Source: a virus
IMG/VR virus record: IMGVR_UViG_3300012227_000062
Length of the DNA: 14,729 nucleotides
Strand: one strand, 5' to 3'
Of this stretch, positions 1,743 through 14,729 are shown in pieces (within the stretch, counting starts at the first letter, position 1; each line of letters opens with the position of its first letter). A program made the position numbers and the translations under genes. The notes beneath the pieces were generated by a model. That model was not told the DNA's origin and did no database searches. It saw only the letters and a list, made by a program, of their open reading frames with translations.

Positions 1743-2135
1743 ATGAATCGATTCTATGAATGGCTCGTGCTCTACACGTCGTGCGATACCGAATGGCAAA
1801 TCGTCGCACTGCTCAAGCGCACCTACGCGGGTGAGTTCGGCCTGGTGGTGAAGCACTTCTTTTTCGAGGCGGACACGTTCGCCCACGGCGTCGACAAGTT
1901 CTTCGTCACGCAGCAGGAAACGATTGCCGATCTCGGTTACTCGGCGCGAACCTTTCAACGCGGACTCGACGGCGACGACAGCGAGGGTGAGGACATCATC
2001 ATTGACGACAGCGAGAGCGAGCTTGTCGCGGCCGGCGTGCCTGTTCGTGGCGCGGTCGCGCAGCGTCTCAACGGTTGGCTGCGTCTCGCGGTCGGGTTTC
2101 CGGACCGACGTGAGCATCTCGAGGTGAAACCGTGA
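1743..2135 (+). CDS. Hypothetical protein with a helix-turn-helix-like segment and an acidic C-terminal region
   Basis: ATG at 1743 with AAAGGGG 8 nt upstream; the ORF track's TTG at 1725 is less likely. 'QQETIADLGYSARTFQRGL' resembles an HTH recognition unit. An acidic stretch DGDDSEGEDIIIDDSESE follows. The stop overlaps the next start (GTGA). Confidence 0.55.
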   Translation: MNRFYEWLVLYTSCDTEWQIVALLKRTYAGEFGLVVKHFFFEADTFAHGVDKFFVTQQETIADLGYSARTFQRGLDGDDSEGEDIIIDDSESELVAAGVPVRGAVAQRLNGWLRLAVGFPDRREHLEVKP

Positions 2136-2398
2136 GGCGCCGCATCTACCGACTCGTCGTCGAGACCTACGATGTCGATTTCAACGAGTGGGAAGCTCAC
2201 GGCTCGGTTCTCTTGCCGTACGGCGCGTGTCCGCGCGAAGTGGAGCACGCCTTGGCGTCGCTCGGGTTTTACTGCCCGCGTGGCGCCGACCGCCTGTCCT
2301 GGGCGGGCAACGTCGGAGCCTTTGCGCTCGCCATCATCAGCGATGGCAATGACCGTACCTTCTTGCGGCTCGTGCGAGCCGAAAGCGAGGCCGCTTGA
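2132..2398 (+). CDS. Hypothetical small protein, 88 aa, GTG start
   Basis: GTG at 2132 overlaps the upstream stop (GTGA) with GAGGTG just upstream. The stop overlaps the next gene's TTG (TTGA). GC is high at third codon positions. Confidence 0.45.
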   Translation: MRRRIYRLVVETYDVDFNEWEAHGSVLLPYGACPREVEHALASLGFYCPRGADRLSWAGNVGAFALAIISDGNDRTFLRLVRAESEAA

Positions 2399-3219
2399 AC
2401 GACAGCGAAAGCGCAGAACTCGCGAGACGCTACACGATCCCCGAGCTCGTCGCCGCGTGGCGCGAAGCCGAGGCCGTCGTGCGGCTCTCGTTTCGGACGC
2501 TGGTGGAGGCCGAGCAGCGCATCAACGCCGTCTACACGCTGAATGGCAGCTATCCGATTCGGGTGACGGCAAGCCGCTACCATCCGAACGAGATTGACTT
2601 CAAGGACATCGATAGCGCTCTCGAACGCATGGCGCGCGACTGCTGGGGAACCATTGTCGCCAAGTGCGAGCTCCACCGGATGATGAGCATCCAGCGCGCC
2701 CATGAGCTCGACGAGCAACTGAAAAAAGGTGAATTGCCACCGATCACAGAGGAGAACGTGGCCAACTTCATCCAGGGCTGTCTCGATAACCTACCCAAGA
2801 TGCTCGAGGAAGCGGTCGGCGAAGTGTTCGATTGGCTACGGCCTTGCCACACCGATTACAAAACCAACAGCAAGCTCGAGATCGGTCCGAAGGTCGTCCT
2901 CACGTACATGGTGGAAGAGGGCTACGGCGGGGAAAGTTTTCGGCTGAACTACAACAAGAGCCAGCACGTGATGGCTATGGAGAATGTTTTTAGCGCGCTC
3001 GACGGCAAGGGGCAGATCGCGAAGGCGAACCGAAGCGCGCTCGAGACGGCCATTGGCGCGTCGGGGCCGTCGGGCCGCGGGGAGACGCCGCTCTTCAAGT
3101 TTCGGGCGTTCAAGAATCGGAATCTCCATTTGGAGTTTCGGCGTCTGGATCTGCTCAAGAGATTCAACATGATCGCCGGTGGGCGCAACCTCCGACCGGC
3201 AGCAAAGGAAGCGTCATGA
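2395..3219 (+). CDS. Hypothetical protein, 274 aa, TTG start. It may belong to a DUF family seen in ICE/prophage accessory regions; the DUF4942 guess comes from memory only and is unverified.
   Basis: Long ORF with protein-like composition. It is coupled at both ends (TTGA upstream, ATGA downstream at 3216), with GAGG 4 nt upstream of the TTG. Confidence 0.6.
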   Translation: MNDSESAELARRYTIPELVAAWREAEAVVRLSFRTLVEAEQRINAVYTLNGSYPIRVTASRYHPNEIDFKDIDSALERMARDCWGTIVAKCELHRMMSIQRAHELDEQLKKGELPPITEENVANFIQGCLDNLPKMLEEAVGEVFDWLRPCHTDYKTNSKLEIGPKVVLTYMVEEGYGGESFRLNYNKSQHVMAMENVFSALDGKGQIAKANRSALETAIGASGPSGRGETPLFKFRAFKNRNLHLEFRRLDLLKRFNMIAGGRNLRPAAKEAS

Positions 3220-3689
3220 AGTTCAAAACTTCTTTGATTCTGGAACGGGCGTACAACTCGCCTCGTGCCTTCCGCACGAAACGACGTTCCCTGGTAGCTC
3301 CCATCAAAACGTTTCGCAGTGTCGGCGGGCGAGAGTTCACCGTCGGACGTGGCGAGCACGAGGAACGCTGCAAGGGTGACCCGCTTTGGTCCGACACGTG
3401 GCCCCTTCTTCACGAAGGGCGACCTGCGGGAAAACTGTTCCGTAGTCTGAACTATGGGACCACTGCAGATGGTGCGCCGCGCTGGCAGGCGAGCACCCGC
3501 GAGCTCTTCTGGTCCAAGGCTTCGGACGCGCCGACAGGTATCGGTTTCGACGTGGCCGCGTTCGATACGCCGGAGCAAGCGCTGGCGGCGTGGGGACGCA
3601 GCGCCGACGAGATCCTCGACTGGGCCGCTGGCAAGCCGGTGCGGAGCATCTACTCGAAAACCGGCGTCTTCCAGAAGGTGGCCCGATGA
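3216..3689 (+). CDS. Hypothetical protein, 157 aa
   Basis: ATG at 3216 with AAGGAAG upstream. ATGA overlaps at both ends. Confidence 0.55.
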   Translation: MKFKTSLILERAYNSPRAFRTKRRSLVAPIKTFRSVGGREFTVGRGEHEERCKGDPLWSDTWPLLHEGRPAGKLFRSLNYGTTADGAPRWQASTRELFWSKASDAPTGIGFDVAAFDTPEQALAAWGRSADEILDWAAGKPVRSIYSKTGVFQKVAR

Positions 3690-3901
3690 CCAGAAGAAGA
3701 ACGGCCGCGGAAGAAGCGGCAACGGCCAAGGATTGCGCAGACACGCGTGCCATGTGGGATCGCATGAATGCGCGCGATAGTAAACGCTTGGAGGAAGCCA
3801 AGGCGTACTTGGTCGCCCATGCCGGTAGCTACGGACAGATCATCCTCGAGCATGTGAAGGCTCTCGAGTTGCAGCTCGCGAAGGCAAAGAAGAAGAAATG
3901 A
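3686..3901 (+). CDS. Hypothetical small protein, 71 aa, with a lysine-rich C-terminus
   Basis: ATG at 3686 with AAGGTGG upstream and ATGA coupling at both ends. The ORF track's longer 3590 start lies inside the previous gene and is unlikely. Confidence 0.5.
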   Translation: MTRRRTAAEEAATAKDCADTRAMWDRMNARDSKRLEEAKAYLVAHAGSYGQIILEHVKALELQLAKAKKKK

Positions 3902-4503
3902 AAACGACCACCGTCGGAACCTGCATCGTCTGCAACCGCGAGATCGCTGTTCGACAATTGGGGCCGCAGACCTCGCATCCTGATGCAAAAGGAAGCACCG
4001 TTCTCGTGCATCACGGCTACCAGCGCCCCGGCGACGGGGCCATCCGCGGCGACTGTTTCGCGGTCGACCTTCCGCCGCATGAGCTGTCGGCCAATGCGGC
4101 GCAGGACTACCAGCGGCATTGCGAAACCACGCTCGTTGCGCTCCGTAAGGCGCTCGTCCAACACGAGCGTAACGGAGTCGACGTCTACAACCGAATGGAG
4201 CGCGTGCCGGTGCCGACAACGGCCGAGCGACCGACTTCGGTTTTCTATGGCAGCGTTGGCCGCGATCCGGGCTGGGAGGAAACCTTCGTGTCCTACCGGC
4301 GGGATGAGTCGGACGAGCGGCGCAGGCGCGTGTTCGCGGACCTGCAGGCTGATGCCATCGTGCGGACCAAGCACGGCATCGACTGGAACGAGAGGGAGAT
4401 CGCCCGGATGATCGTGGCGATCGACACGTGGGCGCTGAAGCCGCTCGGTAAGCGCGTCGAGACGCCGCCAACGACGCGGCGGCGAAGGAGGAGATTCGGA
4501 TGA
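3898..4503 (+). CDS. Hypothetical protein with an N-terminal CxxC/His cluster, putatively Zn-binding
   Basis: 'CIVCNREI...HHGYQRPGDGAIRGDC' is a candidate zinc-ribbon. ATGA coupling at both ends. Confidence 0.6.
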   Translation: MKTTTVGTCIVCNREIAVRQLGPQTSHPDAKGSTVLVHHGYQRPGDGAIRGDCFAVDLPPHELSANAAQDYQRHCETTLVALRKALVQHERNGVDVYNRMERVPVPTTAERPTSVFYGSVGRDPGWEETFVSYRRDESDERRRRVFADLQADAIVRTKHGIDWNEREIARMIVAIDTWALKPLGKRVETPPTTRRRRRRFG

Positions 4504-4841
4504 CCATCGAATTTAAAATGGACAGCGTGCATCTCGGACCGAAGGTTCTCATGTCGAGCCGGGCAGCGATCGAGGTGCTCGAGGTGCTCGGCTACACGTG
4601 GCGCGGGCTCGGCACGACGGGCGACAAGCTCGAGTCGCTCGACGTCGTTCGTCGCTGCGACCGGTACCTGATCAACAGGCAGACGGTGCAGAGTGCGCTC
4701 GCCAAGTTCGAGCTCCGTCAGGGGGGCAGCGCTAGAGGCGCCACGTCGCACGTCGACGCGGTGCTCATCGACATGGCGGAGCTTCGCTGCTTCGCACAGA
4801 AGGCGCTTCACGCGGGGCGCGCGATCCGGTGGTGCCCATGA
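4500..4841 (+). CDS. Hypothetical protein, 113 aa
   Basis: ATG at 4500 with a strong AAGGAGGAG RBS. ATGA coupling at both ends. Confidence 0.6.
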   Translation: MTIEFKMDSVHLGPKVLMSSRAAIEVLEVLGYTWRGLGTTGDKLESLDVVRRCDRYLINRQTVQSALAKFELRQGGSARGATSHVDAVLIDMAELRCFAQKALHAGRAIRWCP

Positions 4842-5137
4842 AACGTATGCATTTCCCAAGTATCAAAGACGTGGCGAGCGTGCTCGCCGTCATCAACCGG
4901 GGCACCGAGAGTGTCGAGAGCGACCCCATCGACGTGCGGTTGCAAGTGTACGACAACGGCACGTGGGCCGTTCGCACGGGCGATCCGCAGTACGACCTCG
5001 ATCACAGTGGCTATTGGGGCGCGTCGAGTCTGCCTGGCGTTTACGAGGGCAAGGTGCGGCGGTGCAATACGCGCGACGTCGCACGCGATCTACTCGAGCA
5101 GTGCAGAGAGATGCATGCCACGTCGAAGCTTGCGTAA
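4838..5137 (+). CDS. Hypothetical protein, 99 aa
   Basis: ATG at 4838 overlaps the previous stop (ATGA). The ORF track's GTG at 4829 is the less likely start. Confidence 0.5.
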   Translation: MKRMHFPSIKDVASVLAVINRGTESVESDPIDVRLQVYDNGTWAVRTGDPQYDLDHSGYWGASSLPGVYEGKVRRCNTRDVARDLLEQCREMHATSKLA

Positions 5138-5140
5138 CGT

Positions 5141-5156
5141 GTACGATCGTACTAGT
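5141..5156. promoter_or_regulatory. Palindromic motif GTACGATCGTAC-TAGT. This is copy 1 of a motif shared with 11001-11016.
   Basis: A perfect 12-bp palindrome (gtacgatcgtac) sits in the 33-bp gap before gene 12, immediately upstream of the AGAAGGAG RBS. A 16-bp match with 2 mismatches lies at 11001-11016. Confidence 0.45.
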
Positions 5157-5170
5157 AGAAGGAGTGACAC

Positions 5171-5896
5171 ATGGTTGACGTTGTGATTTCTGAGGAAGAA
5201 GCGCGTGGCTGCGGACACCGCAAGCCCGCCAAGGATGGCGTAGGCGTCTACCTCGTCGGACCGAGCGAAGGGGCGCCGTGCGGACGGCTGCCGTACGAGC
5301 TCCACGCGTGCCCGACGTGCAGCGGCGGCATCAAGCCGGCGCGGGGGTGGAGCTGGATAGAGCCACGAAACCTATTTGTGGATGCGTCCCGCTTGACGAT
5401 TGAGCCCGTAAACCTGTTTCTGGATGCAGGGGTGTGCTCGGTATCAGTTCCTGCGTTGCGAGCCGCCTGCCAGTCTTGTCCGCTCGGGCTCGGCATGCCG
5501 GAGGGGCGCCACGGGCTCATCTGGGTCGGCGAAGGGCACTACGCGGCGCCCGGCGACTTCATGACAGAGGCGCATCGCATGGGCGTCAGCCGCAAGATCA
5601 AGGCGGTGCCGAAGGGTTTCGAGCTCGGCAAGACGGTCGTTTACCTCGCGCACCGGCACACGCCGCTCAAGGAGTTCGACGTGGAGACGGGCTTGGCGAA
5701 GCTCGGACCTGCCATCTTCTCGGTGTTCAAGCCGACAGGGATCGACCTCGTCATCGCTGACGAGAACAAGGTCCCGGAGAAAGCCGAAAAGCTCGCCGAG
5801 AAGTACGGGGCGCGCATCGTGAAGGTGATTTCGAAGCTGGCCGAGCAGCCTCCCGAGGCGGAGGCGGTACAGCGTTCGCTGCCGATGGTGCCATGA
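5171..5896 (+). CDS. Hypothetical protein, 241 aa, with an N-terminal 4-Cys zinc-ribbon-like cluster and an internal 14-aa tandem repeat
   Basis: Strong RBS agaaggagtgacacATG. 'CGHRK..CGRLPYELHACPTCSGG' suggests a Zn ribbon. The repeats IEPRNLFVDASRLT / IEPVNLFLDAGVCS are encoded by 26-bp direct repeats at 5360-5385 and 5402-5427. The stop overlaps the next start (ATGA). Confidence 0.65.
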   Translation: MVDVVISEEEARGCGHRKPAKDGVGVYLVGPSEGAPCGRLPYELHACPTCSGGIKPARGWSWIEPRNLFVDASRLTIEPVNLFLDAGVCSVSVPALRAACQSCPLGLGMPEGRHGLIWVGEGHYAAPGDFMTEAHRMGVSRKIKAVPKGFELGKTVVYLAHRHTPLKEFDVETGLAKLGPAIFSVFKPTGIDLVIADENKVPEKAEKLAEKYGARIVKVISKLAEQPPEAEAVQRSLPMVP

Positions 5897-6474
5897 AATT
5901 GCGTATCCAAAACTACACGGCGTATCGAACGGTCGATCTGCGCCGGTTCTTTACGGCGGGCCTGCGGGCGATGGTTGTCACGCGGTCAAAGACGATCGAG
6001 GTGCGCTACCGGTCGGGCCGGCTGACGTGTTCACGGGCAACGCTCGGCGCGTTCGAAGAGGTCAGCGCCGTCGATGCCGATGGGCTGCCGTCGAAGAAAT
6101 GGCGGCTCGATGAGGGGCGCTGGATTCGTATGCTCATTGGTAAGCCGAGCCCGTCAGGTCCCGACCTGCGCCGGTTCGCGCGCGTGTTCGAGCACGAGGT
6201 GCTTCACAATAAGGGCGTCGGGCATCGTGAGATGACACCGGCACAGTGGCGCTGCGATGAGCCACTGCCGAAGTGGGCCGATGGCCTGGTAATCCGATTG
6301 AAGGAGGTCAAGGCGAAGCCGACCGCGGCGGACAGAGTGGCCGGCCGCGCAGAGCACGCGCGGGAGATGCTTGCGGCGTACGAGCGCAAACAGAAGCGCG
6401 TTGCGACGCTCCTCAAAAAGTGGCGGGCGAAGGTGCGCTACTATGAGCGACGCGCAGCAGCGAAGGCTCTTTGA
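5893..6474 (+). CDS. Hypothetical protein with an HEVLHNKGVGH (HExxHxxGxxH) zincin-like motif and a basic coiled-coil C-terminus
   Basis: ATG at 5893 (ATGA coupled). The motif matches HExxHxxGxxH exactly, but there is no other family evidence. Confidence 0.55.
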   Translation: MKLRIQNYTAYRTVDLRRFFTAGLRAMVVTRSKTIEVRYRSGRLTCSRATLGAFEEVSAVDADGLPSKKWRLDEGRWIRMLIGKPSPSGPDLRRFARVFEHEVLHNKGVGHREMTPAQWRCDEPLPKWADGLVIRLKEVKAKPTAADRVAGRAEHAREMLAAYERKQKRVATLLKKWRAKVRYYERRAAAKAL

Positions 6475-6600
6475 AATCTAGTGGTACAAGTGGGTACATT
6501 TTCAAGCGATTAGCTACCGTTTGAAAGCGTGCACATGAGGTCAAAGAACGGGAAAGCCTAGCCTCACCACTAGATTTGAAAGAGCTGCAAAAGGGACCTC
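6469..6600. promoter_or_regulatory. AT-rich intergenic island that probably holds a promoter or operator for genes 14-15
   Basis: A 15-bp inverted repeat (6471-6485 ttgaaatctagtggt / 6566-6580 accactagatttgaa) has 1 mismatch and flanks about 80 bp. TTTGAAA occurs three times, at 6470-6476, 6520-6526 and 6575-6581. A candidate sigma70-like pair is TTGAAA (6471-6476) and TACATT (6495-6500) with an 18-bp spacer. GC is about 45% against about 65% background. Confidence 0.4.
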
Positions 6601-6954
6601 ATGGAAACGAAGCGGTATGGAACGGTCGACGTGGATTGGGAGTGGGAGCAGTTCGAACCCGTGGCTGAAGAGCAAGCCGAGGATATCTACGAAGAGCAAG
6701 CCGACATCGTGATTTTCGATCCACGTCGCTGTCCGCGCCATCCCAACGTCCAGACGTCGAGCGATGATGGCATGTTCGATGCGCCCTGCGGCGAGTGCGA
6801 GTATGAGTCCGACAGCTGGGCTGAACGCTACGAGTGGGAGCGACCGGACCGGCCAATCGCCCGGTGCGGGCTCGGCTACCGGTACTGGGGTTATGATCCC
6901 AAGGGTGAGCTAGTGAGCTGCTTGGCCACGCTGAACGACGAACTGGTGTTCTGA
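6601..6954 (+). CDS. Very acidic small protein with a Cys cluster, 117 aa
   Basis: RBS aaaagggacctcATG. About 29 D/E residues against about 12 K/R. Cys-containing motifs CPRHP, CGEC and ARCG. Confidence 0.6.
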   Translation: METKRYGTVDVDWEWEQFEPVAEEQAEDIYEEQADIVIFDPRRCPRHPNVQTSSDDGMFDAPCGECEYESDSWAERYEWERPDRPIARCGLGYRYWGYDPKGELVSCLATLNDELVF

Positions 6955-14447: not shown

Positions 14448-14729
14448 ATGCCGGCCGTCACGAACACCCGCCGCTTCACCGAGAGCTGCGAGCAGGCCCG
14501 CAAGGCGGCCGTTGCAGGGGATGCGGCGCGGGTGCAGCGCGCGATCGGTGAAGCGTGGCGCCTGCTCGAGGAGCTCCGCGTAGAACTGAGGGGGCGCGGC
14601 GAACTCGGTCAGCTCGACGAACTCAGGGAAGAGCTGCGACGCACCGTCAAATCTTGTCAGAGCCATTCGGAGATCAACCATGGCGACGAAACAACCCCTG
14701 CGCGTGATTCATGGCAAGAAAACGCGGAC
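14448..14729 (+). CDS. Hypothetical protein, 3'-partial; the ORF runs off the window end
   Basis: ATG at 14448. The frame is open to 14729 with high GC3 and a coiled-coil-like sequence (EELRVELRGRGELGQLDELREELRR). A competing SD+ATG (GGAGATCAACCATGG, ATG at 14680) in another frame may mark the next gene. Confidence 0.35.
   Translation, partial: MPAVTNTRRFTESCEQARKAAVAGDAARVQRAIGEAWRLLEELRVELRGRGELGQLDELREELRRTVKSCQSHSEINHGDETTPARDSWQENAD

Follow-up and report, generated by a model that had tools for sequence, protein, structure and literature searches.

Two short palindromic sequences in a stretch of viral DNA of 14,729 nt (IMG/VR record IMGVR_UViG_3300012227_000062; the whole stretch is called the window here) are probably copies of one shared protein-binding operator, to judge from their comparison with related phages. 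The operator would be a palindrome of about 20 bp embedded in the promoter regions of two operons, that of gene 12 and that of a homolog of the major vault protein (MVP), in such a way that a dimeric phage-encoded DNA-binding protein would most likely bind the box and block RNA polymerase, and that these two operons and several others elsewhere in the genome would be under one switch. The best candidate for this regulator is a predicted helix-turn-helix protein of 92–110 aa of the XRE (Cro/C-protein-like) type, whose putative target is GGTACGATCGTACC-containing DNA.

In this way a look-alike pair becomes a defined cis-regulatory element, with 27 instances, a consensus and a testable candidate regulator. 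The MVP operon, the Tad2-like gene divergent from it and the widespread, unannotated gene-12 family would have one control signal in common, and such a signal offers a practical means of finding genes regulated together in metagenomic phage contigs and an aid in the design of expression experiments with phage vault proteins. The understanding of such systems is unchanged, because the logic is the familiar one of a phage repressor and its operator.

Two palindromic boxes in the window

Box 1 (ACGTGTACGATCGTACTAGT, 5137–5156) is a 20-bp imperfect palindrome upstream of gene 12, and box 2 (GATGGTACGATCGTGCTACT, 10997–11016) lies between the divergent Tad2-like and MVP genes, neither box being assigned to a strand. 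The preliminary description had reported two 16-mers within them, GTACGATCGTACTAGT at 5141–5156 and GTACGATCGTGCTACT at 11001–11016, which have an exact 10-mer in common and are identical at 14 of 16 positions, and a palindromic core that extends to a perfect 12-mer at the first site (GTACGATCGTAC, 5141–5152); all of this was confirmed by re-reading the sequence, and so was their placement, the first just before a ribosome-binding site and gene 12 and the second between the divergent starts at 10989 and 11051. Site 1 lies within the 33 nt that separate the stop of the upstream gene (5137) from the ATG of gene 12 (5171), with the AAGGAG ribosome-binding site directly 3' of it, and site 2 is within a 61-nt gap between the start of the Tad2-like gene (10989, minus strand) and that of the MVP gene (11051).

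The first gene 3' of box 1, gene 12 (5171–5896, plus strand), encodes a Cys-rich protein of 241 aa that belongs to no Pfam or PHROG family. Downstream of box 2, the first gene of the operon is the MVP homolog (11051–13603, plus strand; 850 aa), with matches to PF11978 (MVP_shoulder, E=1.8e-29) and PF17795 (Vault_3). The Tad2-like gene (10339–10989, minus strand; 216 aa; PF11195, E=4.2e-11) is divergent from it.

Judged from the window alone, the resemblance of the two sites could be a coincidence. Pairs of 16-mers with at least 14 matches number 179 (97 distinct) in the whole window versus about 98 in dinucleotide shuffles, repeated 10-mers number 366 versus about 273, and when only the intergenic DNA (1126 nt) is taken, at least one such 16-mer match is present in 23% of the shuffles. 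The assertion that the similarity is far beyond chance in 14.7 kb does not hold, as the pair, 10-mer and intergenic-only statistics are all non-significant against the shuffles, and the apparent significance of a pattern-specific test within the window is a post hoc one, since the two sites had themselves supplied the pattern. It is by the independent sequences of related phages, and only by these, that the motif is recognized as non-random.

Two further places in the window were not counted as boxes. The first is a possible degenerate third site at 14415–14434 (plus strand; ACGGGTGCCGTGG, with a −10-like TATCTT), ahead of the gene start at 14448. The region 14415–14447, 5' of that gene, is homologous to position 12810 of locus L087 and position 9310 of locus L090 (L numbers denote the compared loci), which carry CACGATCGTG and CACGACCGTG followed by TACCAT and TAGCAT, respectively. 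The window counterpart has decayed to ACGGGTGCCGTG followed by TATCTT and, because of this decay, it may be a lost or diverged operator. The second place, at 6471–6500 upstream of the gene at 6601, is TTGAAA-18-TACATT, the only promoter given by a consensus scan between 4900 and 11300, and contains GGTAC-N6-GTAC in its spacer and −10; it was rejected as a further box because relatives have no box at the homologous place.

The box in related phages

The loci compared were those around gene-12 homologs, from eight other lineages that together with the window make nine. The gene-12 proteins of the eight are 63–86% identical, and their synonymous sites around 50–60%. The palindrome was found upstream of gene 12 in every lineage with at least about 64% protein identity and an intergenic gap at that place, as AAAGGTACGATCGTAATAGT in L087, as ACAGGTACAATCGTACTAGT in L085, L086 and L002, and as perfect 20-bp palindromes in L088–L091 (ACAGGTACGTTCGTACCTGT) and in L098 (ACTAGTACGATCGTACTAGT); in L195 two boxes are present. 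On the MVP side, L087 and L090 have GATGGTACGATCGTGCTACC at the same place, identical to the window box at 19–20 of 20 positions, and L185 has GCTAGTACGATCGTGCTAGC ahead of its MVP operon, with a 12-bp core identical to that of the window. The MVP proteins of these four lineages (window, L087, L090 and L185) are 64–83% identical, with 42–61% identity at fourfold third positions; taking the flanking genes in both alignments together, protein identity is 64–86% and that of fourfold third positions 42–64%. The box is the sole conserved block in the intergenic alignments on the MVP side (alignment A2, four lineages) and upstream of gene 12 (alignment A3, six lineages) and, being conserved amid diverged synonymous sites, it therefore constitutes a phylogenetic footprint.

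The palindrome is also present at three or four further gene starts in the relatives. In seven non-redundant relatives (around 105 kb), the window-derived 10-mer GTACGATCGT occurs 17 times, at 12 distinct sites, versus 0.16 expected from shuffles, and every occurrence falls in a gap between called genes; such gaps make up about 7% of the L190 sequence (summed from its gene table). The preliminary description had suggested searching related genomes for enrichment upstream of genes, and had named scattering through coding regions as evidence against its proposal; the enrichment is there, and the distribution is the opposite of such scattering. Its proposal of a common dimeric regulator for the gene-12 operon and the MVP locus is thus supported by the comparison, with the box at both homologous positions and also at the starts of other genes, one of them a candidate regulator gene. 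L087 and L190 are one contig, on which the boxed XRE gene is found along with the boxes of gene 12 and MVP.

From the 27 sites of the nine lineages a consensus was derived, GCTAGTACGATCGTACTAGT, a palindrome of about 20 bp with the half-site (G)GTACG and the core ACGnnCGT, in which A7, C8, C12, G13 and T14 are invariant in all the sites. The central positions vary (GATC, GTTC, AATC, GAAC), and the outer arms are symmetric yet lineage-specific, in such a way that the two perfect 20-bp palindromes mentioned above have different outer arms. Double sites occur in L098, with boxes 14 bp apart, and in L195, with boxes 17 bp apart.

Pattern searches were also carried out. A scan of IMG/VR with GGTACGATCGTRCTAC gave six matches, all in one coding sequence of an unrelated virus of 45% GC, and that with TAGTACGATCGTAC gave 51 stretches on 50 contigs, two of the stretches on a 182-kb relative; five low-GC contigs with the full 16-bp palindrome were inspected and were not related-looking. 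In the literature, the motif strings matched unrelated primer sequences only.

Promoter-like hexamers and alternative explanations

The position of the boxes with respect to promoter-like hexamers was read from the sequence. At window site 1, a putative −35 (TTGCGT, 5130–5135, plus strand) overlaps the stop codon of the upstream gene and is followed after 17 nt by a putative −10 (TAGTAG, 5153–5158, plus strand), a geometry found also in L087 (TTGCGC-17-TAGTAG). For the rightward promoter, that of the MVP operon, the putative −35 is TTGCCG (10989–10994, plus strand), the TTGC of which is invariant in alignment A2, and the putative −10, 18 nt after it, is TACTCA (11013–11018, plus strand), weak because it has no T at position 6. 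On the minus strand, TACCAT (10998–11003), inside box 2 and 8 nt before the ATG of the Tad2-like gene, might serve as the −10 of a leftward transcript that is almost leaderless. We infer the promoters themselves, as we do repression as opposed to activation and the identity of the regulator. A sigma-70 consensus scan gave no promoter at either window site, nor at the box sites of L085, L090 and L187, because the −10 hexamers match TATAAT at three of six positions and several of them are without the final T.

The register of the box relative to these hexamers is variable. It lies in the spacer in L085 and L090 (TTGACA-16-TAAGCT/TAATCT), in the window and L087 upstream of gene 12 (TTGCGT/TTGCGC-17-TAGTAG) and at the MVP sites (TTGCnn-18-TACnnn). 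At the 3' end of the SNF2 helicase gene it covers the −10/+1 region, in an arrangement conserved in four lineages (TTGACA-17-TAG(G/T)TACGATCGTA..ATG), and L194 has TTGCGA-18-TAGTAC at that place. At the XRE gene of L190 and L191, the box is beside a divergent promoter-like element, TTGACA-17-TAGCGT.

This geometry bears on the alternative that survives best, and that we nonetheless consider unlikely, namely that the box is the promoter element itself, for instance as a TAGTAC module of the −10 or extended −10 kind, or as the sequence recognized by a sigma or transcription factor that the phage encodes. Every box is at a gene start, and at several box sites of relatives, namely the post-SNF2 sites and position 19030 of L098, belonging to several lineages, the half-box provides a TAGTAC or TAGGTA hexamer 17–18 nt after TTGACA, TTGACG or TTGCGA and 10–13 nt before the ATG. 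However, the register differs from site to site with respect to the −35-like hexamers (spacer, −10/+1, upstream of the −35), a separate −10-like hexamer is found 3' of the box at window site 1 and in L085 and L090, and the two-fold symmetry is kept and co-varies between lineages, something that a directional element does not need. The variable register and the maintained symmetry are therefore better fitted by an operator for a dimeric protein than by a promoter element.

An operator might be bound by a host protein, such as a LexA-like or another global regulator recognizing a GTAC-N4-GTAC box, an explanation by analogy to which we would give little weight as well. LexA boxes are of the types GAAC-N4-GTTC and RGTAC-N3-DGTWCB, with GTAC arms in the cyanobacterial consensus. 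The architecture found here, GTAC-N4-GT(A/G)C, has likewise two arms of 4–5 bp with 4 bp between them, and we take it to resemble the Gram-positive and cyanobacterial-type LexA boxes, which would speak for such a protein. The same can be said of loci with more distant gene-12 homologs (51–54% GC; positions 7066, 8401 and 12420 of L073 and 19257 of L070), where AGTAC-N4-GTAC(T) palindromes abut TTGAC(T/A) hexamers, as in TTGACT-17-TACTAT, where spacer and −10 contain the box; these sites may represent either a family of related operators or a box of LexA type. By contrast, a C at the D position departs from the cyanobacterial consensus, no LexA or S24 protein is implicated, and the strict box is found solely in the clade with the XRE homolog, being absent from around 115 loci with more distant gene-12 homologs. 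The box is even at the XRE gene itself, in full form in four of five lineages. Because of this co-occurrence with the XRE gene, a phage-encoded factor is favoured over a host regulator.

The preliminary description had offered a shared RNA hairpin (GUAC-GAUC-GUAC) as another possibility. The palindrome would then act in the leaders on translation or stability. The perfect 20-nt palindromes do fold stably, with −15.8 kcal/mol in L088 (z = −5.2) and −11.1 kcal/mol in L098 (z = −3.3), and read-through from gene 11 would include site 1 in a transcript. The window regions, in contrast, fold no better than shuffles (z = +1.57 for site 1 and +1.04 for site 2), and the minimum-energy fold of site 1 bypasses the palindrome. 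Moreover, the palindromy runs through the centre, so that there is no free loop sequence, several boxes precede the inferred transcription starts or serve genes of either strand, and Rfam gave no match at 5130–5170 or 10990–11050, its only match, elsewhere, being below threshold. We regard a hairpin as very unlikely on these grounds.

Finally, that the two intergenic 16-mers resemble each other by chance, or that they are a Dam/PvuI site (GATC/CGATCG) with no regulatory role, is scarcely credible, as chance fits the window-only statistics but is ruled out by the presence of the conserved box at the homologous places of eight other diverged lineages and by the approximately 100-fold enrichment in relatives, and the Dam/CGATCG reading fails because, common as CGATCG is in the window (16 copies versus 15 expected, the other 14 without GTAC arms), the GATC of the homologous gene-12 boxes is replaced by GTTC (L088–L091, L195) or AATC (L085, L002) with the arms conserved, so that with this varying central dinucleotide neither GATC nor CGATCG is a conserved feature.

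Candidate regulator, known systems and phage context

The search for the protein that would bind the shared operator led to the 182-kb relative (IMGVR_UViG_3300037483_001670; L098/L179/L187), in which one box is directly upstream of a gene for a 100-aa protein with a helix-turn-helix signature. XRE-like homologs of 92–110 aa were found in the five lineages whose compared sequence covers that region (L187/188, L185/186, L190, L191 and L194), in all five adjoining the SNF2 helicase gene, at a divergent junction with a Cpn10/ThyX/SSB module. A full box is directly upstream of the gene in the first four of these lineages, and in L194 the box is degenerate (TAAAATCGTA). The L190 protein has 92 aa (MTDFETVHIGEIIRQWREGG...) and, L190 being the contig of L087, it belongs to a close relative with both window-type boxes. 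According to the synteny with L190 (Tad5, three small genes, SNF2, XRE), in the phage of the window the XRE gene would be expected around 3.4 kb to the right of 14448, outside the window.

The assignment of these proteins to the XRE type is drawn from sub-threshold Pfam scores and from structural matches with weak E-values. In Pfam, HTH_31 scored 20–22 bits, with a cut-off of 27 (E=2e-4 to 9e-4), and HTH_3 was also below threshold (E=6e-3 to 2e-2). An AF2 model built on two sequences predicts five helices with a pLDDT of 71.6, and its leading Foldseek matches in the PDB, with E of 8e-3 or worse, are mostly XRE-family helix-turn-helix proteins (5woq, ClgR 3f51, C.AhdI 1y7y, HipB and lambda cI 1lmb). 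Extension of the XRE family and its SNF2 neighbourhood in IMG/VR returned the same 182-kb contig only, and a protein search with the XRE sequence returned two clusters only.

The XRE-like gene is the leading candidate because of the full box in its own upstream region in four lineages, a position that suggests autoregulation. That its product is the regulator that binds the box is a tentative proposal, made through guilt by association, to which we would give somewhat less than an even chance. In L098/L188 a gene with a GerE-type helix-turn-helix is located between two boxes, and its product might be the regulator there instead; it was placed lower than the XRE gene because homologs are missing from the other box-bearing loci, as judged by tblastn before L185–L195 were included and by the Pfam gene tables of the latter, which are without GerE. 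The HTH-like gene at 1743 put forward in the preliminary description (1725–2135) had to be discarded as a regulator, as it has no Pfam or PHROG signal and shows no helix-turn-helix in Pfam even at E≤1.

By analogy, the system most likely works like a classical phage Cro/CI-type or C-protein-type repressor–operator circuit, in an uncultured clade of large soil phages. As in the lambdoid Cro/CI operators (OR and OL of lambda, 434 and P22), the sites are pseudo-palindromic, of 14–20 bp there, and present in several copies. The lambdoid operators overlap promoters, and the boxes found here abut or overlap promoter-like hexamers; there one operator set separates the regulator gene from a divergent promoter, and here, in relatives only, a box adjoins the XRE gene, beside a putative divergent promoter in L190 and L191. 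The candidate also has a predicted five-helix XRE/Cro-CI fold, with 1lmb among the structural matches. The differences are the absence of sequence similarity in both operator and protein, a candidate without S24 peptidase or C-terminal dimerisation domain, and sites spread here over at least 40 kb at many operons, versus two clustered tripartite operators.

The controller (C) proteins of restriction–modification systems, such as C.AhdI, C.Esp1396I and C.BclI, are also small XRE helix-turn-helix proteins (around 70–100 aa) with palindromic boxes just upstream of their own gene, and they are among the best structural matches of the candidate (1y7y, 2b5a, 3clc). Their boxes, however, are of the GACT...AGTC type, different from that described here, which is in addition found at many unrelated operons. 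According to the gene tables of the relatives, no restriction or methylase genes are beside the XRE gene, whose neighbours are the SNF2 helicase and the Cpn10/ThyX/SSB module. In the Cluster A mycobacteriophage L5, one small repressor, gp71, acts on many stoperator sites dispersed across the genome, which are asymmetric 13-bp sequences, often within transcribed regions and orientation-dependent. The likeness would be in one small repressor with many dispersed sites, whereas the sites found here are palindromic and at gene starts.

In a wider reading, a phage-wide regulon, early or counter-defence, would be defined by the box, and in it one small XRE repressor would gate the MVP shell operon, the Tad2-like and Tad5 genes of anti-Thoeris type, a TnpB/Cas12f-like gene and the gene-12 module. 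We consider this reading possible but doubtful. If true, the regulon would belong to large soil phages (up to about 180 kb) of a clade not characterised before, and the operator would give a handle on a whole co-expressed counter-defence programme and on the timing of viral vault protein production. The TnpB/Cas12f-like gene (PF07282) of the 182-kb phage (L133 95–1885, equivalent to L098 from 19049 onward; L187 18527–20143) is directly downstream of a double box, and this nuclease of transposon type therefore appears to share that control.

With respect to the origin of the window, positions 1776–14729 (L001) are identical to a soil-metagenome contig (ENA ERZ27267714). Its genes include those for RadC, DUF4942, an ice-binding-like protein, a ResIII helicase, the Tad2-like protein and MVP, and the start of the gene from 14448, the positional counterparts of which in L087 and L090 carry PF25190 (Tad5). 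The gene-12 family has 236 database relatives, all of them unannotated, and 34 relatives of gene 12 are on IMG/VR viral contigs of up to 182 kb; the context of the window is therefore taken to be that of a large phage. A search of genome contigs with gene 12 gave only three distant relatives, none of them pointing to a host. Members of the family are Cys-rich with invariant CG.R...C..C...C..C motifs, also with no Pfam or PHROG family.

The MVP homologs of the window, L087, L090 and L185 have 845–863 aa, with conserved small genes after them. The gene next to MVP in the window (13613–13963) has a homolog in L098 that is directly downstream of a box, and no MVP is called in that neighbourhood (L188 gene table). 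Viral MVPs have already been described in gut phages (bioRxiv 10.1101/2023.11.10.566534).

Other features of these regions were also recorded. The ice-binding-like protein (7793–8650; PF11999, E=3.6e-71) is encoded inside the phage region, and the N-terminal segment of its translation is hydrophobic. A long ORF at 10085–10975 (minus strand) overlaps the Tad2-like gene in another frame and is probably spurious, since no family matches it and the gene caller of the source did not report it. Just 3' of the RadC gene, at 1653–1691 of the window and around 7560–7610 of L088, there is a conserved hairpin, ttgaacgagg-[GC-rich stem-loop]-cttggttcaa, whose outer arms TTGAAC/GTTCAA are kept and whose inner stem differs between the window and L088 with the pairing preserved; it has no T-run and may be an RNA element or a terminator-like structure. 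Two other repeats of L088 are unrelated to the GTAC box: a long inverted repeat, GGATACATAAG...CTTATGTATCC, in a divergent control region at 2880–2960, and a leader repeated before two genes at 3185 and 3515, tcgcaggRtgcctga..tcaggcctcccgcgaaacgaaa.
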